Source: a virus. From it: a stretch of DNA of 64,000 nucleotides. The stretch lies in IMG/VR virus record IMGVR_UViG_3300021420_000026, positions 6,221 through 70,220 of that record, one strand, 5' to 3'. Shown here piece after piece: positions 8,501 through 53,320 of this stretch (the stretch's first letter is position 1; the number at the start of each line of letters is the position of its first letter). A program made the position numbers and the translations under genes. The notes below the pieces were generated by a model. The model saw nothing but the letters and a program-made list of their open reading frames with translations. It did not search any database and was not told the origin of the DNA.

Positions 8501-11500
8501 ACCGTTCGCAGCCGATGGAGGCTTGATCGACAATGACTGGAAACAACATCCCCGCGGAGAAGGCTACGACTCCGTCATCGCCGGCAACGGCCACACCGCC
8601 CGCATCAGGGACGCTCTCCGTGACATCGGGGGGCGCATCGAAGAAGTTTACCGCGACTATGCCAAGCGGTTTCGCCTCGACGACACCACCTCAGAATCTT
8701 CAGCACGTGCGCATCAACCGACCAAGGCTTCCGACCCAATATCCTTGGATCAACTGAAGACGGGGTCCGGGCTGCACGAGGACGTACTGGGCCGCTTTGG
8801 CACGTTCGGGGCCGGAGACACCCTTGAACAGCTGAAGCTGTACGACCTGAAGCGGCTTACAGACAACCCGAAGGATGCAGCCGAGCTTGCCAAGAAGCTC
8901 GGATTCGACGTGGAGTACTTCAGCTTCGAGAGCGATCCCAGTAAGGGCGTGGAGTTTAGGCTTCCCCGACTGGGAAAGAATGGCTACGAGAATGGAAAGC
9001 TGTGGCTCTATGATCCCCGCGTCGGAGCCGGCAGCTTCTACGACACGGAGTACACGCGCGCGTGGCGCATCACCCACGAACTCGGTCATGCGCTCACCGA
9101 GCCTCTGCTGCAGTCACGCTACGGGGACAGCCGTCGGTACGGCCGCCTCGGCCAGACGCTGGAAGTGACCCGCGGCGTTCTCGGTAAGCAGCGCCAAGTA
9201 ACCGAACGCCCGCTCACCCTCATGGAGGCTCAGCGCGCCGTCGAGTGGGAGGACGCCGCATTCCGTGCGCAGCGTGAAGTGCTCAAACAGCTGGGCGTTG
9301 CCATCAGTGATGAGGACTTCGCACGGGAATACAACGTGAACCTGTCCGACGCCGTCTACCGAGTTCTGAGCGGCAATTTCGGCGATCCAGCCCTTAGCGG
9401 CTTCATTCCCAAAAACAGCACACAGCCGCTCGAGGATGTCCTCGGGCTTCTTGCGCGCGCCGAGGGTGTCCTCGCACGCAGTCAGAACCGCGCGCCAACC
9501 GCTGGCATCGACGGACCAAGCTATCGCCCCATCTCCGACTCCGAAATTCGTCAGGCTCTCGAGAATCGCGCGAGCGGCGTGAAGGATGTCAAATTTGCCG
9601 CGCGTGCCGATGAGGCCGTGGACTACCGCGTGGTTGTCAAAGACGGTAAGGGCAACGAGCTGGATGGACCCCATCAGGATCTCCTCTTCAACAACGAACA
9701 GGACGCCTCCGATCATATCACGACCATGGCGGACATGCACGCCGGGCCCGCGGGCGCAGAGGTCGACCACAACCACTTCTGGTCGCAGGTGACGAAGGGC
9801 GGGAAGATCGACCGCACGTTCGCCATCGAGCCCGTGAGCCGCAACCCCTTCCGTGGCCAGAACCCACGCGGCGGCGAGGGCACGCCGGCTCAGCGCTTCA
9901 TCGGCGAGTTCGAGAAGCAGTACCCGGAGTCCGGCGAGATCGGCGAGCGCCTCGTCAACGGCAACACCGTGGTGTCGATGGTGCACGACCCCTTCAAGGC
10001 CAACACCGCCTACGTCCCATACGTGCGCGCGCTGACGCCGGGGCAAGGCGACGGCACCAAGGCCCTGCACGACGTCGTCGGCCTCGCCGACAAGCACGGC
10101 GTCGCCCTCGAGCTGAACGCAGTTCCCATCGGCACCTCGATGCAGTCGCGGCAGCTCATCGACTGGTACAAGAAGCTCGGTTTCCGCGAGGTTGGCGAGC
10201 CCGAGTCGAATGCGTGGGGAGCCACGAGCCAGCTCATGCGCCGCGAGCCAGCGGAGAAGCCCGAGCAGATCCCGCCGTTCGCCACAAATGCCGGCAAGGG
10301 CATATCTGCACAAGATGCCGCCGAGGTCATACGCTGCGCCAAGGAGATGTTCCCGCAGGCGGTCCACCACCTCGCCACCAGCATCGAGGACACGCCCCAC
10401 GAGGTGCAGGCCATCGCTGCCATGCGCGGTCTCACCGACCGCGTGCAGGCGGCGTACGTGCGCGAGTACGACGGCACCCACGTCTACCTCGTCCAGAACA
10501 ATATGCGCAGCGTCGACGAGGCCCTGCGCACCATGGTCGAGGAGAACGTCGGCCACGACGGCATCGCCAAGACCTTCGGCCCGGCCGTGGGCAACCTCAT
10601 GGACGGCTTCCTGCGGAATGAGGCTCTGCGCCCGGCCATCATCGAGATGGCCGCCCGGGAGGGCATCAACCTCCGGGCCGCAACGACCCCCGTGGCTCGC
10701 AAGGAGGCGCTCAGGGCCGCTGCCGAGGAATGGCTGGCCCACGGAGCCGCCCGGGAGATCACCGGCCAGAAGTCGCCTCAGGGGCTCCAGAAGGCCGTGC
10801 GGGACGTTGTGGCGGCCGTCAAGGTCTGGGCGGCCTCCAAGGGGCTGGGCGTCACCCTAGGCCACGACGAGGCCCTACACGCCCTCGCCAAGGCCCACAG
10901 GTACGTGACCAGCGGTGACTGGATGACCCGGATCAGCGAGCAGCGCGAGGAGGCCGAGGCCGGCAAGGTCAAGTTCGCCGCCGTGCCCCCGAGCGGGAAC
11001 GCAGACCTCGACGAGCTGCTGAACGACAAGATCGGTGCCGAGAAGGTGGGCTGGCGCACGCGGCTGTCCGGCGCCGTCCGTGACATCCGCTCGCGCATGG
11101 TCGTCTCCGGCCTCGACCGCATGTACCGCGTCAAGCAGTACGAAGACGACCTCAAGGTGCCGCCGGCAGAGTCCGGGTACATCAGCATGCGCCTGTCCAC
11201 GAACGTGGCGCCGTTACTGCGCAACCTCATCGAGTTCGGCCACCTGCAGTGGACCGAGACGCCGGGCGCCGACGTCGACAAGAGCATGACCCCGGACTTC
11301 AAGGAGGGCAAGCCCCTAAATCAGATCCTCGCCCCGCTCGGCAACGACCCGGCAATGCTCAGGCGCTTCGAGGGCTACCTCGTCGCCCTGCGTTCGCGCG
11401 ACCTCATGGGTCAGGGGCGCGAGAACCTGCTCGAGCAGCGCCACGTACAGGCCGGGCTCGACCTAGCCACCACGTACCCGCACTTCGTCACCATGCAGAA

Positions 11501-15027: not shown

Positions 15028-15233
15028 ACAAAAACGACTGCAGGGACTGGTTCGTCATGGGCACGATTGCGGCGGCGTGGGCCGCGGCGACCGTATACCT
15101 GTTCCGGTTCCACAGCGAGGTGACGTTCGCGGCGTGGTGCGGCCTATGCGCGACCATGGTCGGCGCCTACCACTACATCAACGTCCGCGATCAGAAGGAG
15201 GCAGACGCCTGTGCCGATTCTCACAATTCTTAA
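15015..15233 (+). CDS. holin (two-TM, class II-like)
   Basis: 72 aa from ATG 15015; two hydrophobic helices (FVMGTIAAAWAAATVYLF, FAAWCGLCATMVGAYHYI) and a charged C-terminus; sits between the endolysin/HNH and the spanins. Confidence 0.55.
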   Translation: MALVNKNDCRDWFVMGTIAAAWAAATVYLFRFHSEVTFAAWCGLCATMVGAYHYINVRDQKEADACADSHNS

Positions 15234-15642
15234 AGCGATCTGGGGCTTCCGAAGCTACTGGCCGTACTTGGTGATCCTGATCCTTGGCGGCGCTCTGAAG
15301 TTCGAGCACTCCAGACTGCTCTCGTCTCGGGCGGAAACTGCGGCCACAGCCACGCAACTGCGTACAGCGGTAGATGCCAACCAAGCTGATCTCGCAACCA
15401 TCTCTGCGCTTCAAACATCTCTGAAAGATGTGACGAAGAATCTGGCTGATGCGAAGACTGACGGCGAGCGTGCAGTACAGCAAGCAGCTCAGACATCCCG
15501 GGAATTGCAGCAGCGTCTCGCCGCTGCAGTGGCGGGTATAAACAAGGGGAATCCATCAGATGACGCCTTTCTTGCGCTTGACATCAACGCTACTCATCCT
15601 GACATCGCTCGCAGCCTGCGCGACGCCGACAGCAATCGTTAA
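15211..15642 (+). CDS. i-spanin (Rz-like)
   Basis: N-terminal TM (YWPYLVILILGGAL) followed by a long Ala/Gln-rich coiled coil; the o-spanin gene is partly embedded in its 3-prime end. Confidence 0.6.
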   Translation: MPILTILKAIWGFRSYWPYLVILILGGALKFEHSRLLSSRAETAATATQLRTAVDANQADLATISALQTSLKDVTKNLADAKTDGERAVQQAAQTSRELQQRLAAAVAGINKGNPSDDAFLALDINATHPDIARSLRDADSNR

Positions 15643-15838
15643 GACCGAGACCGTAGAGGTCACGAAGATTGTCCCGGTCCCTGCAGAGCTGACAGCGCCG
15701 TGCTCAGCCCCGCCTCTGTCAGGTCAAGGGGAGCTGACGGTGAAGGACGTGCTGATTTGGGCGATGACGAACCGGGCCGCGCTATCAGACTGTGATCAGC
15801 GGATGGCGAAGGTACGCGCGTTGGGCCCCCAGCCATAA
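15560..15838 (+). CDS. o-spanin (Rz1-like lipoprotein)
   Basis: Signal peptide with lipobox LAAC (LTSTLLILTSLAAC); short; out of frame and overlapping the i-spanin 3-prime end. Confidence 0.6.
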   Translation: MTPFLRLTSTLLILTSLAACATPTAIVKTETVEVTKIVPVPAELTAPCSAPPLSGQGELTVKDVLIWAMTNRAALSDCDQRMAKVRALGPQP

Positions 15839-16662: not shown

Positions 16663-16805
16663 ATCCGAGACCTCCAGTGCCACGCCTCGGTCCAGCCTAG
16701 GCTCGCCATCAGCCACGACACGGCCTCAGCGAAGTGCCCGACATGCCACTGCATGACGCCGGCAAAAAATGCCCCAAAGGCGATGCTCGCGTATACCAGC
16801 TTCAT
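16659..16805 (-). CDS. small membrane protein
   Basis: 48 aa, MKLVYASIAFGAFFAGVMQW...; ATGA overlap with the exonuclease stop and with the downstream gene start. Confidence 0.4.
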   Translation of the reverse strand: MKLVYASIAFGAFFAGVMQWHVGHFAEAVSWLMASLGWTEAWHWRSRI

Positions 16806-17476
16806 GGGGCAACTCCAAGTCGTGGGCCATCGTCGCCGAACAGCGGCGCCTGCGCCGTCTTCTGCCCAAGCTTCCAGATGGCGTGATTGTAGAACACCCA
16901 CAGCGCAGTCTGCCAGATGGCGTCGTCACCGGCGTGGTGGGCGATGGGATCCTTGTGGCTGGCGACGGGCACGCTCCACGTCCGAGAGACGCCGGCACGC
17001 CATGCCGCCTCCATGACGCCGGTCATGCAGCGCTCGCTGCGGAAGCCCCAGCTCGGCGTGATGCCGAAGTACTTCATCGCCTGCTTGATGATGACGAGAT
17101 CGAACGTGGCCGGGCGCGCGATGACGAAGCCGCCCATGGTGCGCGCCTCCTTGACGAAGGCGTTGAAGGCCTCGAGCAGGGACTTGCCGTCTGGGTAGAC
17201 GTACTGCAGCTGCTCGCCCTCGGGCCGCTGCAGGACACGCCGGGCCTTGGACTGCGTGCCCCACCACTCGAGTGTGGAGTTGTCGACGCTGCGCCCCTGC
17301 TGCGCCGGATCCTCCCACTGCACCTGCCCGTAGAACACCACGGGGTTCACCTTCTCGTAGGTGCGCAGGAAGCCGTTGTCGTCGAAGGCGACGGCGCCGA
17401 TGCTGAGGATGAAGGCGTTGGCGTCGGTCGACTTCGTCTCAATGTCGACCATGACGCTGCGGTCGTACTGTGCCAT
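16802..17476 (-). CDS. DEDDh 3-prime to 5-prime exonuclease (DnaQ/RNase T-like)
   Basis: MVDIETKST (Exo I) and HHAGDDAIWQTALW (Exo III, H-x4-D) motifs; start ATG 17476 with SD caGGAGtaggc. Confidence 0.65.
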   Translation of the reverse strand: MAQYDRSVMVDIETKSTDANAFILSIGAVAFDDNGFLRTYEKVNPVVFYGQVQWEDPAQQGRSVDNSTLEWWGTQSKARRVLQRPEGEQLQYVYPDGKSLLEAFNAFVKEARTMGGFVIARPATFDLVIIKQAMKYFGITPSWGFRSERCMTGVMEAAWRAGVSRTWSVPVASHKDPIAHHAGDDAIWQTALWVFYNHAIWKLGQKTAQAPLFGDDGPRLGVAP

Positions 17477-17478
17477 GC

Positions 17479-17712
17479 CTACTCCTGAGGGTCGTCTGGC
17501 GCAGGTATGCGCACGATGTGGCACCGGCGAAGCGGCTTCCAGATGCCGGAGTGCATGGCCCAGCAGCCGTCGGCACTGTAGTATACGCGCCCGTCCCTGA
17601 ATGGCGCCGTGGGCGCGTACCCGGGCGCAGATTCTCTGGATGCAACTACCCAGCATGCGAGCCCGACGCCTACGACGATACCCATCAAAAATGAGAAAAC
17701 AGCATCACTCAT
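17479..17712 (-). CDS. small membrane protein
   Basis: 77 aa with hydrophobic N-terminal helix FSFLMGIVVGVGLACWVVA; coupled to neighbours. Confidence 0.35.
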   Translation of the reverse strand: MSDAVFSFLMGIVVGVGLACWVVASRESAPGYAPTAPFRDGRVYYSADGCWAMHSGIWKPLRRCHIVRIPAPDDPQE

Positions 17713-18380
17713 GACTTACCCTTGGGCTCCTCGTCCTTCTCGAGCGTGACCTTGAAATACTGGCGCGCCGCCGTGTGGTAGACGATGATGCCCTCCGGGT
17801 TCAGGAACGGCGCGGCGTGACTACCGTGGAGTCTCAGCTCATTGAGCGCGGCGTCCACCGCGAAGTCCTGAGGACCGAAGCTCAGTTCAGGCACTACGTG
17901 ACAGCACAGCGGCGCCCATCTGGTTCCATCTGGCAAGGGGTCAGCGAGAATCTCCTGATCCGTCAGGTACGCTGTCGGATGTGGATACAGGTGCCTGTCA
18001 GCCCAGCGGCTGACGTTGAACAGTGAGAACCGCTTCTCGCCCTTTGGCAGGCCGTACCCGCGCTGGATGCCTGAGCCCCACCACTCGCCGTAGTGCGTTC
18101 CGACGCCGAGCTTCACTAGATCGTTGGCGTTCTTCAGCACCCACGTCGCGAATCCGAAGTTGTCGTTGCCCGGCGTGATGAAGCGGTTGCGCGAGCCAGC
18201 GAAGATGTCGTAGTTAAAACCCTCGTGAGTCACCATAGCAACCCGGTTGGTGTCAGCCTCGACAGTTGGATTGAACAGCGCAACGGTGACCGAGGCGTTG
18301 GTGCCGTCGATCTTCTCTGTGACGATGACGTTGCGCTTCAGGCGCGGGATCTTCGGGAACTCCTTGAACTCAAGAGCCAT
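17709..18380 (-). CDS. nucleotidyltransferase of the ligase/capping superfamily (putative RNA or DNA ligase, KxDG motif)
   Basis: N-terminal VIVTEKIDGTNASV contains the motif I lysine-adenylate signature KxDG; 223 aa is the size of minimal RNA ligases. Confidence 0.5.
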   Translation of the reverse strand: MALEFKEFPKIPRLKRNVIVTEKIDGTNASVTVALFNPTVEADTNRVAMVTHEGFNYDIFAGSRNRFITPGNDNFGFATWVLKNANDLVKLGVGTHYGEWWGSGIQRGYGLPKGEKRFSLFNVSRWADRHLYPHPTAYLTDQEILADPLPDGTRWAPLCCHVVPELSFGPQDFAVDAALNELRLHGSHAAPFLNPEGIIVYHTAARQYFKVTLEKDEEPKGKS

Positions 18381-23380: not shown

Positions 23381-23716
23381 ATGACTGAGTATATTCAGGG
23401 ATCGCCATGCAAGCGAGGGCACAGCGGAAGGCGTTACGCAATCGGCGGCCATTGCGTAGACTGCAACCGCGCTCTAACAGCAGCCGCAAACAGATTAAAG
23501 CTGCCGCGCCCAACCAGACCAATGCCGGACGCTTGTGAGCTGTGCGAGGCTCCTAGGATGGCGGATAGGAAGCTAGGCCTAGATCATGATCACGAGACCG
23601 GGAAGTTTCGGGGATGGTTATGCAGGCGCTGCAACACCATGCTGGGTCACTTCGGGGATAATATCTCTGGCCTGATGCGGGCCATCGAGTACTTGCGGCG
23701 TGCTATACTTTCCTGA
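23381..23716 (+). CDS. recombination endonuclease VII
   Basis: Zinc-binding CKRGH...CVDCN and the catalytic signature LDHDHETGKFRGWLCRRCN typical of the EndoVII family. Confidence 0.7.
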   Translation: MTEYIQGSPCKRGHSGRRYAIGGHCVDCNRALTAAANRLKLPRPTRPMPDACELCEAPRMADRKLGLDHDHETGKFRGWLCRRCNTMLGHFGDNISGLMRAIEYLRRAILS

Positions 23717-30148: not shown

Positions 30149-30273
30149 AAACCACGCTGCTTGCTATACTCCTGTTCGTGATCGGCGCCGCGTCTGGTTA
30201 CTGGCTGGACCGCAGTCTCAGGCACTTCGCGATTCAGGTTCACGCAACTTGCGCAAGGGCGATGACAATCTGA
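30145..30273 (+). CDS. tiny membrane protein
   Basis: MKTTLLAILLFVIGAASGYWL...; ATGA overlap with the exonuclease stop. Confidence 0.3.
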   Translation: MKTTLLAILLFVIGAASGYWLDRSLRHFAIQVHATCARAMTI

Positions 30274-30524: not shown

Positions 30525-30957
30525 GCTCTACCTCGCGGGACCGATGACCAACATCCCGCAGTTCAACTTCCCCCTGTTCCATCGCGCGGCGAAGTACCTG
30601 CGCGGTCAGGGCTACGACATTGTCAGCCCGGCTGAGATGGATTCGCCGGCAGTGCAGGCCGCGGCCATGGCGAGCCCCGACGGAAAGCTCGACGCCAGCC
30701 ACAAGATCGCTGGCGAGACGTGGGGGCAGATCCTCGCGAAGGACGTCATGCTCGTCGCCGACGAGATCGACGGCATCGTGTTCCTTCCCGGCTGGGACAA
30801 GTCCCGCGGCGCCAACCTCGAGGCCACTGTCGGCCTACTGGTCAACGCGCGCGAGTTCACGTTCTACCGGTTCGATCCCGAGACCGGCACCGTGTTCGAG
30901 ACGCCGAAGTTCATGATCCTCGACGCCCTGCACCGGGCCATGGGAGAGAGACTGTGA
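30517..30957 (+). CDS. nucleoside 2-deoxyribosyltransferase-like / DUF4406 family protein (putative dNMP N-glycosidase)
   Basis: N-terminal KLYLAGPMT and DIVSPAE resemble the Rossmann-like YLAGP signature of the family; probable TTG start 30517 (ATG at 30544 is the alternative). Confidence 0.5.
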   Translation: MSKLYLAGPMTNIPQFNFPLFHRAAKYLRGQGYDIVSPAEMDSPAVQAAAMASPDGKLDASHKIAGETWGQILAKDVMLVADEIDGIVFLPGWDKSRGANLEATVGLLVNAREFTFYRFDPETGTVFETPKFMILDALHRAMGERL

Positions 30958-31511
30958 CGGATACCAAGCCATCGAACCCCAAGGACATCATCGGCTCGGC
31001 GAAGCTGGATCTGGGTCTGGCGCCGGACACCATGGAGGTCATGGCCGCCGAGGCTTTCCTCGAGGGCGCTCTGAAGTACGGGCGCTACAACTGGCGCATC
31101 AAGGGCGTGCGGGCGTCGACGTACCACGCCGCTCTCAAGCGCCACATCAAGAAGTGGTGGAACGGCCAGAACCGCGACAAGAAGACGAACGTGCATCACC
31201 TGTGCAATGCCATGGCGTGCATCGTCATCATGTACGACGCAGAGCTGTACGGCAAGTTCGAGGACGACCGGCCGCCGTGCCCGAACCCGGATGCGATGGC
31301 CGAACTCATCGACCGCATGGAGTCTCAGGTCGCGCACCTGAAGTCCCTGTTCGCTGATCACAAGCCTCACCAGTACACGATCAAGGATACTCCGCAGCAC
31401 GAGGATGGCGCTGCGTTTGTTGGGGAGCCACCGACTGAGGCTGAGCTGGATGAGCTGCTCGATGCACAGCTCAACGGCGCATGGGCAGGCGCGTTCCGCG
31501 TGAGTCTGTAG
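30954..31511 (+). CDS. dATP/dGTP pyrophosphohydrolase N-terminal-domain-like protein
   Basis: GTG start overlapping the previous TGA; AEAFLEGALKYGRYNWRIKG and HHLCNAMACIVIMYDAE resemble the phage dNTP diphosphohydrolase N-domain (A..KYG..NW). Confidence 0.45.
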   Translation: MTDTKPSNPKDIIGSAKLDLGLAPDTMEVMAAEAFLEGALKYGRYNWRIKGVRASTYHAALKRHIKKWWNGQNRDKKTNVHHLCNAMACIVIMYDAELYGKFEDDRPPCPNPDAMAELIDRMESQVAHLKSLFADHKPHQYTIKDTPQHEDGAAFVGEPPTEAELDELLDAQLNGAWAGAFRVSL

Positions 31512-38426: not shown

Positions 38427-38704
38427 CGTTCTGCCGCACGAGCGGCGCGCGCCGCGCCCGCGCATTTCAAGGCGCGGATGCTCGTGTCCGCAGTGCGATC
38501 CGCGCAGCAACGACGAGAAGATGAAGGCCGTCTTCGAGGGCTTCATCCCCGTCGCCGCCAATCTCCGCGCAGGCAGAAAAACGCCGAAGAAGTAGAGCTG
38601 CTATACTGCTTTCAGGTGACACGCTTCGCCTGAGATGGCGAGTTGGTCCCTACCCACTGCACGGGTTCGTCCCGTCAGGCGAATTATAAGAAGAAAGGGA
38701 CACC

Positions 38705-41091: not shown

Positions 41092-42000
41092 ATGGCAATG
41101 AATCGTTCACTGTTCAAGAAGCAGCTCCAGCTGGGCTTGAACACCGTCTTCGGGATGGAGTACAACCGGTACCCCGAAGAGTGGCGCGACATCTTCGACA
41201 TCAACACCTCGGTGAAGGCGTACGAAGAGGACGTGCTGATGGCGGGTCTCGGGACCGCCCCGGTCAAGACGGAAGGTCAGGCAGTGACATACGACGAAGG
41301 CGCAGAGTCCTACGTCGCGCGTTACATCCACGACACGATTGCGCTGGCGTTCGCGATCACTCAGGAAGCGGAAGAGGACGGCCTCTACGGTTCCATCGCG
41401 GGCAAGTACAGCAAGTCGCTGGCACGTGGACTGCAGAACACCAAGGAAGTGAAGGGTGCCAACATCCTGAACAACGGCTTCTCGGCGTCCTTCCCGGGCG
41501 GCGACGGCGTCGCGCTGTTCAGCACCGCGCATCCGATCTGGGGTGGTGGCACGCAGGCCAACATGTTCTCGACTCAGCCGGACCTCACCGAGGCCGCGCT
41601 CGAGGCGACGGACATCAGCATCGGCCTGTGGGTCGACGAGCGTGGCATCCGCATGGCTGCCAAGCCCAAGCGCCTCATCGTTCCGAACGGGAACAAGTAC
41701 GTTGCGCAGCGCCTGCTGTTCAGCGAGTTCCGTCCGGCAACGGGTGACAACGACATCAACGCGCTGAAGTCCCTCGGGACGTATGCCGGTGGCGTCAGCG
41801 TCAACCACTACCTGACCGATCCAATCGGCTGGTACGTGAAGACGGACGTGGCGGACGGCCTCAAGCACTTCGTGCGTAAGAAGGTCGAGCGCGGGATCGA
41901 GGGCGACTTCGAGACCGGGAATATGCGCTACAAGGCGCGCGAGCGGTACAGCTTCGGCTGGAGCGATTACCGCGGCGCGTGGGGAAGCGCGGGCACCTGA
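41092..42000 (+). CDS. major capsid protein (putative)
   Basis: SD aagggga; 302 aa; followed by the strongest intrinsic terminator in the window; last gene of the head operon. Confidence 0.5.
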   Translation: MAMNRSLFKKQLQLGLNTVFGMEYNRYPEEWRDIFDINTSVKAYEEDVLMAGLGTAPVKTEGQAVTYDEGAESYVARYIHDTIALAFAITQEAEEDGLYGSIAGKYSKSLARGLQNTKEVKGANILNNGFSASFPGGDGVALFSTAHPIWGGGTQANMFSTQPDLTEAALEATDISIGLWVDERGIRMAAKPKRLIVPNGNKYVAQRLLFSEFRPATGDNDINALKSLGTYAGGVSVNHYLTDPIGWYVKTDVADGLKHFVRKKVERGIEGDFETGNMRYKARERYSFGWSDYRGAWGSAGT

Positions 42001-42027
42001 TCGCCAGCTCAAGTGGCAATCCAAGAA

Positions 42028-42056
42028 GGGGCCCGGCGACGGGCCCTTTCTTTTTG
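42028..42056 (+). terminator. rho-independent terminator after the capsid gene
   Basis: GGGCCCG-GCGA-CGGGCCC perfect 7-bp stem followed by TTTCTTTTT. Confidence 0.65.
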
Positions 42057-42068
42057 GGGTGTGCTACT

Positions 42069-42293
42069 ATGAGCGGGACATTTAGAGACGTGCGTGCTGC
42101 GAAGCGCAAGCGAGGCTTGGCTCCGCCGGATCGCTACTGGGCGTGGCGAGAGCCATCGAGCTGGCACCACGAGATGACGCACGTGCCGGCGCGTGCGGAG
42201 CTGCGGCAGAAGCTGCATGCGGTGGTGAGCGGCAAGGCGGAAGACGATGGAAACTTCCCCGACCACAAGAAGCCGCACGTGTATTATTGGTGA
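42069..42293 (+). CDS. hypothetical small protein
   Basis: 75-aa ORF ending 1 nt before tRNA-Gly. Confidence 0.35.
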   Translation: MSGTFRDVRAAKRKRGLAPPDRYWAWREPSSWHHEMTHVPARAELRQKLHAVVSGKAEDDGNFPDHKKPHVYYW

Positions 42294-42367
42294 GCGTGGC
42301 TGGTGCAATGGCAGCATGACAGTCTTCCAAACTGACGATGAGGGTTCGAGTCCCTCGCTGCGCTCCA
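42294..42367 (+). tRNA. tRNA-Gly (anticodon TCC)
   Basis: Manually folded: 7-bp acceptor stem with two G-U pairs; anticodon stem ACAGT/ACTGA with a terminal A-A mismatch; loop CTTCCAA (U33, anticodon UCC, A37); T-arm GAGGG-TTCGAGT-CCCTC; 3-prime CCA encoded. Confidence 0.75.
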
Positions 42368-42373
42368 TAGTTT

Positions 42374-42449
42374 AGGCGCCAATGTTCCAAGGCTGGCGAC
42401 GCCTCCTCCAAAGCGGTGTGGCAAGGTTCGATTCCTTGGGTGCCTGCCA
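42374..42449 (+). tRNA. tRNA-like gene, possibly tRNA-Trp (CCA); D-arm and anticodon stem imperfect
   Basis: 7-bp acceptor stem AGGCGCC/GGTGCCT; T-arm CAAGG-TTCGATT-CCTTG; CCA encoded. The best anticodon fold gives loop CTCCAAA with one stem mismatch. Confidence 0.4.
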
Positions 42450-43048
42450 GAATTGTGGTAGACTGCTGGTGTTGACTTAACCTAACCAAGAGGAAGCCAC
42501 TGTGAAAAACTTTCTTGCCCTTGTGATTCTGGCGCTGTGTAGTCTCTCAGCGCAGGCCCAGACGTCGATTGACCTGCCGACACCGCAGACCCTTGCGCTT
42601 GCGCAGCCTGTGCAGACTTTCTTGTGTTACGCCGATCAGGTGAACCTGAAGGTGTATAGCACCGCGGTAACCGGCTTCAGCGCCGACGGCAACTACGTCA
42701 CGGGTCAGGTTCCGGCCTACTTCACCTGCGGGCACAGCGGGCGCGGCGCTACCATCCACACGTACTACTCGTGCGCGCAGTTGACGTGGGACTTATCGGG
42801 GAATCTTGTGAGTGCAACGGACACCGTTCAGTTCGCCAGCAACGGCGCGCCGGCCTCATACAGCTGCCCCGACCTCGGTCTGGTGATGCCGTCGCGAACG
42901 CCGCCGAGCACGACGGTGGTCGGTAACTCGTTTACGAACGACGGCGGCTATGTCGCCGAGACGTTGCTGTCACAGCCGTGCGGATCCATCGCCTGCTACG
43001 GGCAGCCGATATACGGCCCGATTCTGTTGACGCCTTGATCAGGGCGGC

Positions 43049-43124
43049 GCCCCGGTAGCTCAGCGGCCAGAGCCGCCGGTTGTCTACCGGAAGGTCGTGG
43101 GTTCGAGTCCCACCCGGGGCGCCA
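43049..43124 (+). tRNA. tRNA-Asp (anticodon GTC)
   Basis: Perfect acceptor stem GCCCCGG/CCGGGGC; D-stem GCTC/GAGC; anticodon stem CCGG/CCGG with loop TTGTCTA; T-arm GTGGG-TTCGAGT-CCCAC; CCA encoded. Confidence 0.7.
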
Positions 43125-43158
43125 TATATCGAGCGCAATGCGCTTACGGATCGATTGC

Positions 43159-43234
43159 TGGGGAGTAGCTCAGTAGGTAGAGCGACTCGCTGTTAACGAG
43201 AAGGCCGCAGGTTCGATCCCTGCCTTCCCAGCCA
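43159..43234 (+). tRNA. tRNA-Asn (anticodon GTT)
   Basis: Acceptor stem TGGGGAG/CTTCCCA; D-stem GCTC/GAGC; anticodon loop CTGTTAA (U33, GUU, A37); T-arm GCAGG-TTCGATC-CCTGC; CCA encoded. Confidence 0.8.
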
Positions 43235-43241
43235 ATTCGAT

Positions 43242-43318
43242 GGGAGGGTAGCTCAGCTGGCAGAGCACGCGACCGATAATCGCGAGGCCGCAGGTTCGAT
43301 CCCTTCCCACCCCCACCA
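43242..43318 (+). tRNA. tRNA-Ile-like (anticodon GAT), possibly degenerate
   Basis: Perfect D-stem and anticodon stem (CGCGA/TCGCG, loop CCGATAA), but T-stem and acceptor stem have mismatches; looks like a copy of the tRNA-Asn 3-prime half with a 3-nt deletion. Confidence 0.45.
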
Positions 43319-43540
43319 CTTCCTGTGCTATGCTTATCAGGACATCTCGATTTGCGAACACAGGAGGCAGGAACGTGAAGAACTAGTACTACCCTCAATT
43401 CACATCACATACATAGCAGCGAGAAATAGGCCCCGGGGGTTGCAGACTCCGGGGCCTTCTGCTATCCTGATCTCGTCCATGGTAGCCTCAGGAGGCAGTC
43501 ACCGAGCGTACGCAACAAAATCCGTAAGCCCAAAAGAAGC

Positions 43541-43570
43541 GCCGCAAGACTTACATTGCGGCGTTTTCTT
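43541..43570 (+). terminator. putative rho-independent terminator
   Basis: GCCGCAA-gacttacat-TTGCGGC stem followed by GTTTTCTTTG; lies in the AT-richer 230-bp spacer after the tRNA cluster. Confidence 0.4.
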
Positions 43571-43585
43571 TGCTATACTCCGGTC

Positions 43586-43750
43586 ATGATCATAACCTTC
43601 CCAGTTGAGCGTACCGAGGGCGGCCAGCTTCAGATGGCGTGGGACAAGTACCAGAGCGCGCGGTGGAGCGGCGGCATGGACGATCTCCCGCTCATCGAGC
43701 GCACCGCGGAGTTCGAGCGCCGCCTGCAAGAGATCGTTCGTGGATCGTAG
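43586..43750 (+). CDS. hypothetical small protein
   Basis: 54 aa (MIITFPVERTEGG...) downstream of a TATACT hexamer. Confidence 0.3.
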   Translation: MIITFPVERTEGGQLQMAWDKYQSARWSGGMDDLPLIERTAEFERRLQEIVRGS

Positions 43751-43915
43751 CGAGTGGCTTGGCTTTGTGACCGGCGCTCTCGGCTGCGCGTTGCTATTCG
43801 CGGCCACGGTGGCCGTATGCTTTCTCGTCTCCGGGTGCTCGGTCCTCGAGCGCTCGGGCTTCTACCAGATGTCAGACCGGTGGTGCGCCAAGCACCCCGA
43901 TGCACCAGCGAGGGC

Positions 43916-44326
43916 ATGCAAATGAAAATTCTGTTGGGCGCGAAAGACGGTGGCCCGGAGTCCCGGGTTCGTGTGTGGGGTATCGAGTCCAAGCGCTGGG
44001 GGTCGGCGCTGCTGCTCAAGTTTGAGCGCGGCTCGCGCGAGGCCTACCACACCCACGCCTTCAACTCGGTGTCGTGGGTGCTCAGCGGCGGCCTGCTGGA
44101 GAAGTTCGTCTTCGGCGCTAAGCCAATCAAGTACCTGCCGTCGTTGCGTCCGGTGCGCACCTACCGCACGACCTTTCACATGGTCGAAGGCATTGCAGCC
44201 ACCACGTGGGTGCTGAGCTTCCGCGGACGATGGCTCAACCGCTGGCGCGAGTACCTGCCGAAGACGCGCTCGGCAATCGTTTTAACACACGGCAGGAAGG
44301 AAATTTCTCATGACGTCGGAGTATGA
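43916..44326 (+). CDS. hypothetical protein
   Basis: Start at MQMKILLGAKDGG; the rest of ORF 43754-44326 upstream is Arg-rich. Confidence 0.45.
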   Translation: MQMKILLGAKDGGPESRVRVWGIESKRWGSALLLKFERGSREAYHTHAFNSVSWVLSGGLLEKFVFGAKPIKYLPSLRPVRTYRTTFHMVEGIAATTWVLSFRGRWLNRWREYLPKTRSAIVLTHGRKEISHDVGV

Positions 44327-44639
44327 AGCGTTCGTCCGTAGCACGATGTTTACGAGCGAGAAGCGCGACCCGCGCGTAGCGCTGGCCGTGTACGGGCTCG
44401 GGCTTGCCGGCGAGGCCGGCGAGGTCATCGAGCCCATCAAGAAGAACATCGACCGCGACAAGCCCATCGACCCCGAGCAGTTCGCGCTTGAGCTGGGCGA
44501 CGTACTCTGGTATCTGACGGCGCTCGCCATCAGCGGGGGCTTCACGCTCGAGGACATCATGAAGCGCAACGTCGACAAGTTGTCGAAGCGCGCAGCCGAG
44601 GGCACGCACGGGTTCCTGAAGGGGCAGTTGCAGCGATGA
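44310..44639 (+). CDS. MazG-like nucleoside triphosphate pyrophosphohydrolase
   Basis: LAGEAGEV...EQFALELGDVLWYLTALAISGGFTLEDIMKRNVDKL is the canonical MazG EExxE/D helical signature. Confidence 0.65.
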   Translation: MTSEYEAFVRSTMFTSEKRDPRVALAVYGLGLAGEAGEVIEPIKKNIDRDKPIDPEQFALELGDVLWYLTALAISGGFTLEDIMKRNVDKLSKRAAEGTHGFLKGQLQR

Positions 44640-44963
44640 ACGATAAGACACCGAGCCGCCCGCGCTCGCGCTGGCTGGGCTCGTCATTCCAGCACCGGCC
44701 GACGCCGCGCTACGACCAGCGCGCTGACGGCTCCGTGCTCGCCAAGGCCGCATCTAATCCGGGCTGGCACCGCGGCGCCCGAGTGAGGAGGGTGAAGTGA
44801 GCAAGCAGTTCACCGTGCGTGCGCGCGAAACGGTCATCAGGGAGTACACGTACGACGCCGAGACCGAGGAGGAGGCGCGCGATGCCTTCCGGCAGGGTGA
44901 CAATACCTCCTGCTTGGAGGTCGATCTCGTCGATACAGAGATCCTGTCAGTGAAGGAGGACAA

Positions 44964-45182
44964 ATGAAGCAGAAGGCACAGAGGCGCCTCGAGGCCATCC
45001 GCCGTCTCGAGGCCACGCCGGCAGACTTCTCCACGTACACCGACAAGGAACTGGACGTCCTCGAGGGCACGCGCTCCGTGAAGCGCAAGGTCACCACCGA
45101 GGCCGAGCGCCAGCTCGTTGGCGTTCGCCGCCGCGTCGAGGCCGCACGCCTGCGCGAGCAGTTCGGGCTGGAGGGCAAGTGA
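44964..45182 (+). CDS. hypothetical small protein
   Basis: 72 aa; ATGA-coupled within the 44310-47449 operon. Confidence 0.35.
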   Translation: MKQKAQRRLEAIRRLEATPADFSTYTDKELDVLEGTRSVKRKVTTEAERQLVGVRRRVEAARLREQFGLEGK

Positions 45183-45463
45183 AAGTATTCGACACCATCG
45201 CCGCCAACGACATCGCCGAGCGTGTAGTGGACGCCGCCGTAGTGCTCGAGCACACCGGGCTGCCGGACGATGAGCTGGAAATCTCATTCACCATCACCCC
45301 TGATGAGTTGCGGCGCGTGGTGCTGCAGGCGCTCGAGGATTACAGCGACGCGCAGGAGCCTGCCCCGTCACCGCCGCCGGTGGTCGACTGGAAGCGGCAC
45401 AGCCACAAGCGCGTGGAAAAGAATGGCCGCGCGGTGTGCGAGGGCTGCGGGGTCGATCTGTGA
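45179..45463 (+). CDS. hypothetical small protein with C-terminal Cys pair
   Basis: 94 aa; GTGA overlap upstream; CEGCGVDL at the C-terminus. Confidence 0.35.
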   Translation: MKVFDTIAANDIAERVVDAAVVLEHTGLPDDELEISFTITPDELRRVVLQALEDYSDAQEPAPSPPPVVDWKRHSHKRVEKNGRAVCEGCGVDL

Positions 45464-46002
45464 CCAACCGGGTGTTCGTGGACATGGATGGCGTGGTGGC
45501 TGACTTCGCCGCTCTCAAACGCAAGCTCGATCTCGATGGCGACCGCGTGAAGAACATCCCCGGCGCCTTCAAGGATCTGAAGCCGCTGCCGGGAGCGATT
45601 GAGGCCGTGCGCTCGCTCATAGGTATGGGCTTCGAGGTCTGGATCGCGACGAAGCCGCCCACAGGGAACGCGGCCGCGTACGCCGACAAGGCAGCGTGGA
45701 TCCTCGAGCACCTGCCAGAGCTGAAGCGCCGCATCATCATGACGCACGACAAGGGCCTGCTCGGTGACGACGAGGACTACCTCATCGACGACCGCGTGCA
45801 CAAGGCCAACTGCAAGGAGTTCAAGGGCGTCCTCATCGACTTCGGTAACACCTGCGCCGGCTTCCCGGGATGGCCCGAGGTTCTGGAGTTCATGCGCCAT
45901 GAACGAGATTGGATTGACCGTCTGTCAAAGCTGGTGCATGATGGGCCGCCGCTTGAGTGGCCGCCGATTTACGACGCGATTGGCGCGCCGGAGGACGTAT
46001 GA
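45460..46002 (+). CDS. HAD-superfamily 5-prime(3-prime)-deoxyribonucleotidase
   Basis: N-terminal VFVDMDGVVADF (DxDxV nucleophile motif) plus WIATKPP and IDD motifs; GTG start overlaps the previous TGA. Confidence 0.6.
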   Translation: MTNRVFVDMDGVVADFAALKRKLDLDGDRVKNIPGAFKDLKPLPGAIEAVRSLIGMGFEVWIATKPPTGNAAAYADKAAWILEHLPELKRRIIMTHDKGLLGDDEDYLIDDRVHKANCKEFKGVLIDFGNTCAGFPGWPEVLEFMRHERDWIDRLSKLVHDGPPLEWPPIYDAIGAPEDV

Positions 46003-46226
46003 TTACCATCGACGTAGACATGGTGAAGATCGAGGGCTCGTGGTGGGGCAATGAGGCCCCGTCGCTGGTGATGGATGAGCTGGGCCGCGGCCGCGTGCGC
46101 AAGCGCGTGCGCGTCAGGATGTCTGCGAGCATCATCTCTGAGATCGCGCGCAAGCTCTGGGCGCTACAGAAGCAGCACGCCGAAGTCTCAGCCAGCCTGC
46201 AGCGCAACCTCAGCAGCCCGTCGTGA
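45999..46226 (+). CDS. hypothetical small protein
   Basis: MITIDVDMVKIEGSWWG...; ATGA overlap with the nucleotidase stop. Confidence 0.35.
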   Translation: MITIDVDMVKIEGSWWGNEAPSLVMDELGRGRVRKRVRVRMSASIISEIARKLWALQKQHAEVSASLQRNLSSPS

Positions 46227-47449
46227 CCATCAAGCAGGTTTTGCGTGCCCCGGGTGGCGCGCCCGTTAAGGTGTGGACGGACGACGTTGAGGCTTCGGCA
46301 CTCGTGCAGCTGCAGAACCTGTCGACGCTGCCGTTCATCCACAAGCACGTCGCCGTGATGCCAGACTGCCACTGGGGCATGGGGTCGACGGTGGGCTCTG
46401 TCATCCCCACGATCAGGGCCATTGTGCCGGCCGCGGTGGGCGTGGACATTGGCTGCGGTATGATGGCGCACAAGCTCGCGTTGCATGCCGTGCACCTGCC
46501 CGACAATCTCGCCGACGTACGCGCGCGCTTCGAGGCCATCATCCCTCACGGCCGCACAGACAACGGCGGCGCCAACGACCGCGGGGCGTGGCACAACCCG
46601 CCCGAGGCCAATACCGCGGAGTGGAACCTGTTGCAGGACGACTCGAGGCTGAAGGCCGTCAAGGAGAGGCACCCCGGCGTCATCACGCGCCCAGAGCAGG
46701 GCCTGCGACAGCTAGGCACGCTCGGCACAGGCAACCACTTCGTCGAGCTGTGCCTCGACAAGGAGGATGCGGTTTGGATCATGCTGCACTCTGGCTCGCG
46801 CGGCATCGGCAACCGCATCGGCACCTACTTCATCGACCGCGCCAAGGAGGAGATGGAGCGCTGGCACATCCGGCTGCCGGACCCCAACCTCGCCTACCTG
46901 CCCGAGGGCTCGCCGGTGTTCGCCGACTACTGGCGCGCGTTGTCGTGGGCGCAGGACTACGCCCGCGTCAACCGCGAGCTGATGATGGGCGCGGCAAAGA
47001 CAGCTCTCGAGGTGGCGCTCGGCCGCGACATCGAGACCACTGAGTGGGCCGTCAACTGCCATCACAACTACGTCGCCGTGGAGAATCACTATGGTCGCAA
47101 TGTCTACGTCACGCGCAAAGGCGCTGTCCGCGCTCGTGAGGGCGACCTCGGAATTATCCCGGGTAGCATGGGGGCGCGATCCTTTATCGTCAGAGGACGA
47201 GGCAATCCTGAGAGCTTCCACAGCTGCTCTCACGGCGCTGGCCGACGCATGTCTCGGGGTGAGGCTAAGCGCGTCTTCACCACTGCGGATCTCGCTGCTC
47301 AGACAGCTGGAGTCGAGTGTCGAAAGGATGCGGACGTCGTCGACGAGATCCCGGGCGCCTACAAAGACATCCAGCAGGTGATGGACAACCAGAGCGACCT
47401 CGTCGAGATCGTGGCCGAGCTGCGTCAGGTGGTTTGTGTCAAGGGATGA
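46223..47449 (+). CDS. rtcB: RtcB RNA-splicing ligase (3-prime-phosphate/5-prime-OH RNA ligase)
   Basis: All hallmark motifs present: PDCHWGMGSTVG, VGVDIGCGM, GTGNHFVEL, HSGSRGIGN, NCHHNY, HSCSHGAGR; 408 aa. Confidence 0.85.
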   Translation: MTIKQVLRAPGGAPVKVWTDDVEASALVQLQNLSTLPFIHKHVAVMPDCHWGMGSTVGSVIPTIRAIVPAAVGVDIGCGMMAHKLALHAVHLPDNLADVRARFEAIIPHGRTDNGGANDRGAWHNPPEANTAEWNLLQDDSRLKAVKERHPGVITRPEQGLRQLGTLGTGNHFVELCLDKEDAVWIMLHSGSRGIGNRIGTYFIDRAKEEMERWHIRLPDPNLAYLPEGSPVFADYWRALSWAQDYARVNRELMMGAAKTALEVALGRDIETTEWAVNCHHNYVAVENHYGRNVYVTRKGAVRAREGDLGIIPGSMGARSFIVRGRGNPESFHSCSHGAGRRMSRGEAKRVFTTADLAAQTAGVECRKDADVVDEIPGAYKDIQQVMDNQSDLVEIVAELRQVVCVKG

Positions 47450-47794
47450 CGACCCTCGTTACCAGCAGATGATCGCCGCCGGCTACCGCCCCGAGCAGAT
47501 CCTCAGTTGTGCAAAAGTGGTAGGGATTCTACCCGGCAGCGGCTGGCACATGTGCCGGTGCCAAGTCGTGGACGCCGACGCCGGTGAGCCCCTGCCGCCG
47601 GCCAGCGAGTGCGGCCTTGGCCGAGCGTAAGGCCGCCCCAGCCGATCAGGCCCGAACCCCGGTAGTCAGGGCCACCCCAGAGGAGATCGAATCCCACAGG
47701 GCGGCTCTGGAGGCCTACCGGCGCCAAGGAAAGCTCGGCCCGGGCCCCCGGCTCTGGGACCAGCTCACGCCGCCGGAATCAGGTACAATGGGGG

Positions 47795-48247
47795 ATGATG
47801 GCGTGGCTTGAGGCGGTCGTGTTCGTTGTCGTAGAGGTGCTGAGCCTCGTAGGCACCGCGCTAGGCTACCTGATCCTGCCAATCCCCTGCGCCCTGCAGG
47901 CGTGGCACGACGTGCCGTCTCAGTTCGACGCGACCCGTACCATCGACGCATGGGACTGGGCGCCGCTCAACGCGGTCTTCGGCAACCCCGAGGACGGGGT
48001 CAGCGGCCGCTACGCCATGGTCTGGGACAACGGCGCCCACGTCAAGTACATGGACGGGCGCAACCCCGTGTGGCGGGCGATGTGCTGGTCGATAGGGCGC
48101 AACAGCGCCGACGAGCTGAAGTACGTATTCAGATGGCGCGGCTCTGGGCCGGCGCCGATATTGCGCGGCACGTGGCTAGGTGGCCGCGAGTGGAAGGCCG
48201 GTTGGCAGGTTGAGAACGGCATCCCCGTTCCGGTATTGAGTTTCTGA
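47795..48247 (+). CDS. hypothetical membrane-anchored protein
   Basis: N-terminal TM (AVVFVVVEVLSLVGTALGYLILPI) followed by a Trp-rich soluble domain. Confidence 0.4.
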   Translation: MMAWLEAVVFVVVEVLSLVGTALGYLILPIPCALQAWHDVPSQFDATRTIDAWDWAPLNAVFGNPEDGVSGRYAMVWDNGAHVKYMDGRNPVWRAMCWSIGRNSADELKYVFRWRGSGPAPILRGTWLGGREWKAGWQVENGIPVPVLSF

Positions 48248-48256
48248 GGTGACAAA

Positions 48257-48487
48257 ATGACAGGTCGAGCGCACCGGGAATGCCTGCGCAGCACGCACTC
48301 CCCGAAGTCGAAGCCGGCGGCAACCAAGCCCGACGGCGCCAAGGAAGATTTTCAGGGGATGATGGACACCGCCGTCAGCAATGCGCGCAGTGGCGAGGGT
48401 AAGGGGCGCCCGGGTGATTCCGGCTCCGACATCCTCGACTACCAGAAGCCTTACGAGCAGACGTCAAAGAAGCGGTCGCGCGGATAG
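48257..48487 (+). CDS. hypothetical small basic protein
   Basis: SD gaggtga 6 nt upstream; 76 aa; last plus-strand gene before a convergent hairpin. Confidence 0.35.
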   Translation: MTGRAHRECLRSTHSPKSKPAATKPDGAKEDFQGMMDTAVSNARSGEGKGRPGDSGSDILDYQKPYEQTSKKRSRG

Positions 48488-53176: not shown

Positions 53177-53320
53177 GGTCGTCTCCTTCGTGACTGACAG
53201 GGGGAGTATAGCAGGGTCCGGGCTACTGCGCAAGCCCCTTGAAGCGGCGCTGCTCGCGCCACCAGTTCAGGCCCACGCGAATCGCGCGGCGCATGAGGCT
53301 CAGCTCGAGCGCTAGGCGCT

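Follow-up and report, generated by a model that had tools for sequence, protein, structure and literature searches.

The DNA analyzed here is a stretch of 64,000 nucleotides (nt) from the IMG/VR virus record IMGVR_UViG_3300021420_000026 (positions 6,221 to 70,220), below called the window. It covers 64 kb, at 64% GC, of the genome of a tailed phage of ~70 kb. The analysis concerns a cluster of tRNA genes that follows the capsid gene and a gene block downstream of it that encodes an RtcB-type RNA ligase. An earlier note on this DNA had read the two as a linked tRNA-repair module with a role in counter-defence. Gene calls were taken from a list of open reading frames (ORFs) and from the JGI calls for the identical contig, and tRNA genes were called with ARAGORN and the Rfam covariance model RF00005. 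The tRNA genes, the ligases, and their immediate flanks are listed below in window positions.

41092-42000: major head gene (PHROG 371)
42023-42052, plus strand: hairpin of an intrinsic terminator, with a U run to 42056, 23 nt past the major head gene
42294-42367, plus strand: tRNA-Gly(UCC), found by ARAGORN, Rfam score 56.4 bits; canonical cloverleaf with encoded CCA and U73
42374-42449, plus strand: tRNA-Trp(CCA)-like element, found by ARAGORN; G73, CCA, and a canonical loop CUCCAAA
43049-43124, plus strand: tRNA-Asp(GUC), found by ARAGORN, Rfam score 59.0 bits; perfect cloverleaf apart from the loop, G73, encoded CCA
43159-43234, plus strand: tRNA-Asn(GUU), found by ARAGORN, Rfam score 67.8 bits; canonical, G73, encoded CCA
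43242-43314 in ARAGORN, with the 3' end to 43318, plus strand: tRNA-Ile(GAU)-like gene, Rfam score 47.3 bits
55005-55076, plus strand: a sixth tRNA, Ala(UGC), found by ARAGORN, Rfam score 31.1 bits; G3:U70, A73, CCA, short D loop
46223-47449, plus strand: RtcB 3'-phosphate/5'-hydroxyl RNA ligase, 408 aa, with a complete active site
17709-18380, minus strand: stand-alone nucleotidyltransferase domain of 223 aa, Rnl2/Rnl5-like ATP-dependent RNA ligase (PF09414, E 2.9e-8)
16802-17476, minus strand: Rv2179c-like DEDD 3'-5' exoribonuclease (PF16473, E 5.3e-27), downstream of the ligase gene

The capsid terminator named in the earlier note was confirmed. The hairpin and U run behind the head gene fold with a free energy (dG) of -27.6 kcal/mol and a z-score of -3.9, and none of 200 shuffled sequences equaled it. 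The tRNA cluster starts 238 nt 3' of this hairpin. ARAGORN found all five tRNA or tRNA-like genes that had been proposed, each at its proposed position on the plus strand. With the covariance model, the proposal held for Gly, Asp, Asn, and Ile and failed for the Trp-like element. The former four and the tRNA-Ala gene, which had been overlooked, scored above the Rfam gathering threshold; the Trp-like element was below it and went unreported by RF00005 even when 2.1 kb was searched at E ≤1. The discriminator bases U73 of tRNA-Gly and G73 of tRNA-Asp and tRNA-Asn are typical of bacteria. L024, a contig related to the window through its capsid gene, has an ortholog of tRNA-Gly(UCC) in which the stem changes are compensatory. 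The Trp-like element has a weak D arm, one mismatch in the anticodon stem, and a T stem of 4 bp; its minimum-energy fold is not the cloverleaf (z +0.33), and it is doubtful that it works as a tRNA. The Ile-like gene has two mismatches in the acceptor stem and one in the T stem and ends in ...CCCCC-ACCA. In its minimum-energy fold, the 5' end pairs with the T-stem strand, which gives a structure in competition with the cloverleaf. The labels "Trp-like" and "Ile-like" chosen for these two were apt, given the Rfam failure of the one and the damaged stems of the other. No exact 30-nt match to the tRNA-Asp or Trp-like genes was found in IMG/VR.

The anticodon loops of tRNA-Asp and tRNA-Ile depart from those of canonical bacterial tRNAs (U32, U37, and A38 in Asp, C33 in Ile), a comparison made with canonical sequences and not with the host's own tRNAs. 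In the Rfam and ARAGORN alignments, the Asp loop reads UUGUCUA with a U at position 37, which is almost always a purine, and the Ile loop reads CCGAUAA, in which C33 replaces the near-universal U33. When IMG/VR was scanned for exact copies of the 15-mer Asp anticodon arm, 5 more tRNA-Asp genes were returned, the bodies of which are completely different. The C33 Ile arm was present in at least 36 phage tRNA-Ile genes, with at least 28 distinct sequences, in an IMG/VR pattern scan; these tRNAs are otherwise well formed and lie on contigs with up to 26 tRNAs. A control scan for the U33 form gave at least 32 genes, and the absolute frequencies of C33 and U33 are not comparable. In loci picked only for their tRNA-Ile, U37 was found in 5 of 31 incidental tRNA-Asp genes, compared with a pyrimidine at position 37 in 6 of 674 other tRNAs. 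Anticodon arms of the recurrent U37-Asp and C33-Ile genes are identical and the tRNA bodies differ. Judged by their sequences, both are recurrent phage variants and not private decay. No description of either variant was found in the literature searched. Phage tRNAs have been proposed to escape host anticodon nucleases via loop changes (PMC10264068), and the recurrent variants, with their altered anticodon loops, fit this proposal. The contigs with U37-Asp (loop UUGUCUA or CUGUCUA) or C33-Ile genes (L160, L170, L173, L186, L192, and L196-L270) are unrelated and rich in tRNAs. Two phage contigs with C33-Ile carry RtcB ~650 nt from the tRNA-Ile gene. A C33 was also observed in tRNA-Pro genes, beside RtcB in L001 (2435-2511, minus strand) and in the post-capsid cluster of L024 (11019-11096), with the loops CCCGGAA and UCUGGAA.

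The RtcB protein matched PF01139 with residues 29-408 against model positions 1-426 of 426 (E 2.8e-129) and PHROG 1075 over the full length (E 1.1e-143). Its catalytic residues were read by motif position and by alignment to the RtcB structures of P. horikoshii and T. thermophilus, and D75, C78, N171/H172, H189, H281, H337 (in HGAGR), R341, and R345 are all present. The earlier description of a complete RtcB with conserved motifs is therefore correct. The E. coli RtcB likewise has 408 aa, with His337 as nucleophile. The PrfH-linked ribosome-repair type (RtcB2) was rejected as a candidate, as TIGR03073 scored 127.7 bits against a cut-off of 271.8. No match to the PrfH-type family was detected among the neighbor genes scanned (MazG, NT5C, and small ORFs, described below), and none to RtcA or RtcR among the neighbors at 43586-48487 or the window genes scanned. 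A Y RNA/Ro60 module in the window was ruled out. A tblastn search with the TROVE protein of the bacterial locus L103 detected no homolog in the window, and no Y RNA there reached the Rfam threshold; a YrlA match of 23.6 bits (cut-off 69) runs from the T arm of tRNA-Asp into the D arm of tRNA-Asn.

The earlier note had also pointed to a KxDG ligase-like gene at 17709-18380, and the product is indeed a PF09414 RNA ligase with K23-I-D-G. Ligase motifs I, Ia, III, and IV read K23IDG, SR, GEWWG, and EGIIV. An AlphaFold2 model of the protein (mean predicted local distance difference test score 89.5) had its best PDB fold matches in T4 Rnl2, Naegleria Rnl (Rnl5), and the trypanosome ligase TbREL1. 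Because of these matches, the protein is predicted to be the adenylyltransferase domain of a nick-sealing ATP-dependent RNA ligase. Stand-alone PF09414 homologs of ~200-230 aa number thousands in metagenomes. The pair of this ligase and the Rv2179c-like exoribonuclease is also present in L020 (17192-19222), a 70-kb contig, and may be a second RNA-end processing unit. The combination of RtcB with a PF09414 ligase recurs in L013 and L020. No polynucleotide 5'-kinase/3'-phosphatase turned up among the window ORFs scanned.

RtcB lies 2.9 kb from the tRNA cluster on the same strand, in agreement with the distance of about 3 kb downstream and the shared orientation given in the earlier note. The block that contains it has the following layout.

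43428-43457, plus strand: GC-rich hairpin (dG -26.1, z -4.2), then promoter-like TGCTATCCT to 43468
43536-43567, plus strand: terminator-like hairpin with a U-rich tail (dG -21.6, z -5.5), overlapping the promoter -35 region
43571-43579, plus strand: extended -10 promoter motif TGCTATACT, predicted from sequence
43586-43750, plus strand: 54-aa ORF, first gene past the promoter, with its ATG 7 nt after the -10 element; no Pfam match
43916-44326, plus strand: 136-aa PHROG 4786 protein (annotated "cysteine dioxygenase," cupin-like; E 1.8e-16)
44310-44639, plus strand: MazG-like nucleotide pyrophosphohydrolase (PF03819, E 1.6e-11; PHROG 229)
44797-45463, plus strand: three small ORFs (56, 72, and 94 aa) with 4-nt overlaps, of no known family
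45460-46002, plus strand: 180-aa HAD-type phosphatase of the NT5C 5'(3')-deoxyribonucleotidase family with a DMDGV motif (PF06941, E 4.9e-15)
45999-46226, plus strand: 75-aa ORF of no known family, translationally coupled to RtcB
47795-48247 and 48257-48487, plus strand: ORFs of 150 and 76 aa, before a convergent minus-strand block

Six genes from 44797 to 47449, with RtcB as the last, are chained by 4-nt overlaps. Of the "tightly coupled operon ending in RtcB" in the earlier note, the coupling was thus confirmed and the end was not, as two genes follow on the same strand. Two hairpins, each with a TGCTATNCT element after it, indicate that the RtcB block is served by a separate promoter and insulated from the tRNA cluster. 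The motif TGCTATACT occurs in 5 exact copies in the window (23701-23709, 30162-30170, 38599-38607, 43571-43579, and, on the minus strand, 53205-53213), mostly intergenic ahead of gene blocks. With up to one mismatch, 22 matches were found against 3.2 expected, and TATACT alone was found 14 times against 2.7 expected. It is probably the main promoter type of the phage. The spacer at 43315-43585 is 270 nt of lower GC content with two strong hairpins and three promoter-like TGCTATNCT elements (43326, 43460, and 43571). It is laid out as hairpin-promoter units, has no Rfam match, and could yield two small RNAs of ~100 nt.

The genes around RtcB were sought in 75 other RtcB loci, gathered from viral contigs, metagenome assemblies, and species-representative genomes and clustered at 80% identity. 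From the set of MazG, NT5C, cupin-like gene, and small ORFs, only MazG recurred (in L013, 6 kb away), besides the Rnl ligase. A dedicated RNA-repair operon was ruled out on these grounds, as the operon partners are not conserved across the 75 loci. The 75-aa ORF had no homolog in the other RtcB loci; the 150-aa ORF has a homolog of 30% identity in L020. The NT5C protein also gave a weak match to PHROG 415, "polynucleotide kinase" (8.3e-5). The tRNA cluster itself is split between the Trp-like and tRNA-Asp genes by a Cys-rich ORF of 178 aa (42502-43038, plus strand) that the earlier note had overlooked. It has an N-terminal Sec-type signal peptide MKNFLALVILALCSLSAQAQ, a good ribosome-binding site, and a GC content at third codon positions of 0.78; no match was found in Pfam, PHROG, or NCBIfam and no homolog in related loci. 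Ahead of the cluster, a possible 74-aa ORF (MSGTFRDVRAAKRKRG...HVYYW) at 42069-42293 ends directly before tRNA-Gly, its stop codon touching the first base of that gene. Pfam gave no match for this ORF, and it is uncertain whether it is coding.

A link between RtcB and tRNA genes was observed across the RtcB clade, defined as the 27 clusters (lineages) with RtcB at least 50% identical to that of the window. A tRNA gene on the same strand lies within 500 nt of RtcB in 8 of these 27 lineages, both phage and bacterial. Bacterial tRNA genes have an estimated density of ~1 per 50-100 kb, from which ~1-2% adjacency is expected. Against this estimate, the observed value of ~30% is far above chance and lends support to a functional link between RtcB and tRNA in general. 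The arrangements are as follows.

L001: tRNA-Asn 130 nt upstream of RtcB
L003-group: tRNA-Lys 57 nt upstream and tRNA-Glu 24 nt downstream of RtcB, with arrays of 18-19 tRNAs
L005 and L009: tRNA-Arg 75 and 20 nt upstream of RtcB
L021: tRNA-Pro 398 nt upstream of RtcB
Melainabacteria: tRNA-Ser 90 nt upstream of RtcB
Isosphaeraceae genome: tRNA-Arg 9 nt downstream of RtcB
L103-L106: 14-20 divergent tRNA genes, a Ro60/TROVE-vWA gene, more tRNAs, and then RtcB, all on one strand

L001, the L003-group, L005, L009, and L021 are phage contigs. The RtcB proteins of L103-L106 are the closest bacterial homologs at 71-72% identity (L103 RtcB at 6001-7227). Past the island in L103 lie Fic, Schlafen-AlbA_2/AAA_16, and DUF6119 genes, a setting that resembles a defence island. 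The tRNA of the Melainabacteria/Obscuribacterales is a tRNA-Ser(GCU), and in nine genomes (L108, L111, L113-L117, L152, and L154) it precedes RtcB by ~90 nt on the same strand. Cyanobacterial L-arrays, which are long tRNA arrays acquired horizontally, adjoin, and are co-regulated with, rtcB (PMC8421152), and the pattern in the clade agrees with these reports.

The nearest relatives of the window were compared at both sites. From 409 capsid relatives in IMG/VR, the best 80 were examined, and only L024, with a capsid 92% identical, has a tRNA cluster behind the capsid gene. Its cluster (Pro, Gly-UCC, Thr, Trp, Asn, Thr) also lies past the capsid terminator, and synteny with the window runs from terminase through the capsid gene and ends there. 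Two other capsid relatives have a single tRNA-Met at this site. RtcB, MazG, and NT5C were not found within 10 kb of the capsid site in any capsid relative examined. L020 is related to the window via primase, Erf, SSB, and terminase. Its RtcB is 71% identical and directly follows the primase gene; no tRNA lies within 10 kb of this RtcB. Synteny between the tRNA cluster and RtcB was thus ruled out as a conserved feature, as L024 has tRNAs without RtcB within 10 kb and L020 the reverse. From the differences between L024 and L020, both the tRNA cassette and RtcB would be mobile accessory elements in this phage group.

The window also encodes a large terminase, a portal protein, a primase-helicase, a DNA polymerase exonuclease subunit, SSB, Erf, and YqaJ/RecE-type exonucleases in addition to the major head protein. 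A 3776-aa polyvalent protein at 2508-13838 contains Zeta-toxin-like, DUF7178, and LPD38 domains; its counterpart in L020 is an ART-PolyVal/LPD38 giant protein. The N-terminal domain of a dATP/dGTP diphosphohydrolase (PF18909) was found at 30720-31511, with an L020 counterpart at 15035-15757. We take this domain to resemble MazZ of 2-aminoadenine (Z-genome) phages, and no PurZ was seen among the window ORFs scanned. Together with the separate MazG and the NT5C phosphatase, the domain may indicate modified nucleotide metabolism. A near-identity DNA search of GenBank phages with 42000-47700 gave no match among isolates, and the RtcB protein has a 100% identical counterpart among JGI metagenome proteins. 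When RtcB was compared with 185,579 species genomes, the best matches were 54-63% identical (metagenome-assembled genomes of Melainabacteria, Fibrobacteres, Planctomycetes, and Alphaproteobacteria), and no host could be named from them.

From the gene content, we are confident that the phage would make several functional tRNAs, an RtcB able to seal 3'-phosphate or 2',3'-cyclic-phosphate to 5'-OH ends, and an ATP-dependent nick-sealing ligase. With modest confidence we favor the reading that RtcB, the ligase, and the tRNAs, including the loop-variant Asp and Ile tRNAs, counter host tRNA cleavage by replacement and by repair of both end chemistries. The counter-defence role is plausible. What the gene identities, the intact active sites, the arrangement into transcription units, and the associations across genomes show directly ends there; tRNA as the RtcB substrate, the timing, and the counter-defence benefit are what we infer. 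In the proposed mechanism, two independent accessory cassettes would both sustain translation in the infected cell. The tRNA cassette, in a hot spot past the capsid terminator, would supply tRNA-Gly(UCC), tRNA-Asp, tRNA-Asn, and perhaps tRNA-Trp and tRNA-Ile, with tRNA-Ala supplied from elsewhere in the genome. Host anticodon nucleases or modification enzymes would probably act poorly on tRNAs with the U37-Asp and C33-Ile loops. The separately promoted operon would yield RtcB, which, with GTP and Mn2+ and via His337-GMP and RNA-3'pp5'G as in the established RtcB mechanism, would reseal RNA broken to 2',3'-cyclic-phosphate or 3'-phosphate plus 5'-OH ends. Such ends would come from metal-independent RNases of the PrrC, RloC, colicin E5/D, HEPN, and MazF types. 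The Rnl2/Rnl5-like ligase would cover 3'-OH/5'-phosphate nicks from metal-dependent nucleases. Replacement tRNAs plus break repair is the standard published reading of such phage genes (PMC7824862, PMC10264068), and phage RNA ligases are regarded as tRNA-cleavage repair enzymes (PMC7824862).

The linked module proposed in the earlier note was upheld in its parts, namely the tRNAs, which are real, the intact RtcB, and the second, ATP-type ligase; the linkage was not, as the two are separate units and share no synteny in the relatives. Several points weigh against a joint role in counter-defence. The predicted transcription signals make the tRNAs and RtcB neighbors in separate transcription units, not one operon, and the two cassettes do not occur together in the nearest relatives L024 and L020. 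The genes coupled to RtcB are neither RNA-repair genes nor found with RtcB elsewhere, and the presence of MazG and NT5C suggests nucleotide metabolism. The Trp-like and Ile-like genes, two of the five in the cluster, may be non-functional. The tRNA-Gly(UCC) and tRNA-Ala(UGC) genes could be plain codon supplementation in a high-GC host. Asp, Asn, and Gly tRNAs had all been called classic targets of anticodon nucleases, but tRNA-Gly is not known as one; colicin E5 cuts Tyr, His, Asn, and Asp tRNAs. Finally, the literature search gave no experimental case of a phage RtcB that counters a defence system.

These points lend some weight to the explanation that tRNAs and RtcB are unrelated neighbors, the tRNAs serving supply or codon adjustment for late genes and RtcB being an unrelated accessory gene in a variable region. 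We consider this possible, if on balance unlikely. The separate transcription units favor it, as do the operon partners (MazG, NT5C, and small ORFs without family). So do the relatives, with a tRNA cluster at the capsid site in 1 of 80, no RtcB within 10 kb in any of the 80, tRNAs without RtcB in L024, and, in L020, an RtcB inserted between primase and its neighbor without tRNAs. The codon usage of the phage, determined from 14,415 codons in 45 confident genes of the window, bears on both sides. The GGA and GGG codons for tRNA-Gly(UCC) make up 25% of Gly codons and the GCA codon for tRNA-Ala(UGC) 8% of Ala codons, minority codons at 64% GC, as expected for codon adjustment. In contrast, GAC accounts for 81% of Asp codons, AAC for 84% of Asn codons, and ATC for 83% of Ile codons. 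The Asp, Asn, and Ile tRNAs therefore match the most used codons of the phage, and Asp, Asn, and Trp are single-isoacceptor families. Since they read the commonest or only codons, compensation for rare codons does not explain the Asp, Asn, Ile, and Trp tRNAs. The recurrence of the loop variants across phages and the adjacency of RtcB and tRNA in 8 of 27 lineages of the clade, compared with the estimated ~1-2%, also argue against unrelated neighbors.

It is rather unlikely that the Trp-like element, the C33 Ile-like gene, and the U37 tRNA-Asp gene are decaying pseudogenes, so that only the canonical tRNAs matter and the loops have no adaptive meaning. The Rfam failure of the Trp-like element, the three stem mismatches and the competing fold of the Ile-like gene, and the fast turnover of phage tRNA genes, evident in the different set of L024, would agree with decay. 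However, at least 28 distinct phage tRNA-Ile sequences that are otherwise well formed carry the identical C33 arm, U37 is a specific feature of tRNA-Asp (5/31 versus 6/674), and the tRNA-Asp of the window is otherwise a perfect cloverleaf.

It is improbable that RtcB acts mainly on substrates other than tRNA, such as 16S/23S rRNA or mRNA cut by toxins (MazF, colicin E3-like, HEPN) or DNA 3'-phosphate ends: E. coli RtcB repairs rRNA and can act on DNA 3'-phosphate ends according to work cited in two papers (PMC9304027, PMC7790460) and the partners MazG and NT5C are nucleotide/DNA-precursor enzymes, but the TIGR03073 score is below its cut-off, the neighbors scanned gave no PrfH-type match, and the clade neighborhoods indicate tRNA genes and Ro60.

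The reading of tRNA replacement plus tRNA repair was compared with known systems. Homologs of RtcB occur in 702 GenBank phage records, the best being 50-60% identical. Phage genes annotated as RtcB "tRNA splicing ligase" (Caulobacter phage CcrColossus gp216, Brevundimonas phage Marchewka) or, in mycobacteriophages, as "RtcB-like RNA ligase" belong to the same PHROG 1075 family, and the role proposed for phage RtcB genes is the resealing of cleaved tRNAs (PMC7824862). The three isolate phages with RtcB that were inspected are jumbo phages of ~280-350 kb with no tRNA within 3 kb of RtcB. The phage of the window differs from them in its size of ~70 kb and in an RtcB that ends a six-gene chain of 4-nt overlaps with NT5C, near MazG. 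The ~441-aa genes before RtcB in the jumbo phages pEa_SNUABM_37 and Marchewka showed no similarity to TROVE. As with Pnkp and Rnl1 of T4, which act on PrrC-cleaved tRNA-Lys, a phage enzyme would reseal a break in the anticodon loop, and an ATP-dependent ligase is also present here. Unlike the T4 pair, RtcB joins 3'-phosphate or cyclic-phosphate ends to 5'-OH directly without end healing, and the ATP-type ligase of the window resembles Rnl2/Rnl5 and not Rnl1. The bacterial rsr-yrlBA-rtcBA/RtcR operon (Salmonella, E. coli) shares the 408-aa size class and the catalytic residues of RtcB. The closest bacterial homologs (71-72%) adjoin Ro60/TROVE, whereas the window has neither a TROVE homolog nor a Y RNA. 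In Anabaena, L-arrays pair a tRNA array with rtcB for a proposed joint role in upkeep of the tRNA pool under active tRNases (PMC8421152), and L103-L106 have the same arrangement. The window differs in that its 5-6 tRNAs are viral, 2.9 kb from RtcB, and separately transcribed. Its anticodon-loop differences are like those of phage tRNAs that evade nucleases (van den Berg et al. 2023, eLife; T5 tRNAs versus PARIS and retron Ec78), except that resistance is here only predicted from the loop sequence.

Phage RtcB, the logic of tRNA plus ligase, and the association of tRNA arrays with rtcB are thus all already known. No genetic test of a phage RtcB was found in the literature search. Bacterial immunity is now recognized to end commonly in tRNA cleavage (PrrC, RloC, PARIS, retrons, Septu, Schlafens, Cas12a3), and rescue of infection by phage tRNAs has been demonstrated experimentally in a few E. 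coli systems. A broader reading, which we put forward only tentatively, is that C33-Ile(GAU) and U37-Asp(GUC) are widespread phage-specific classes resistant to nucleases or modification enzymes and that the RtcB-tRNA adjacency of the clade, which extends from phages to bacterial tRNA-array/Ro60 islands, reflects a conserved mobile module of tRNA supply plus tRNA repair, of which the window would be one loosely linked example. The window adds no new principle and provides a compact non-jumbo example with both ligase chemistries and variant tRNAs. The comparative leads, namely the strength of RtcB-tRNA adjacency and the recurrent C33-Ile and U37-Asp tRNAs, are testable candidates for protection of the tRNA pool by phages.

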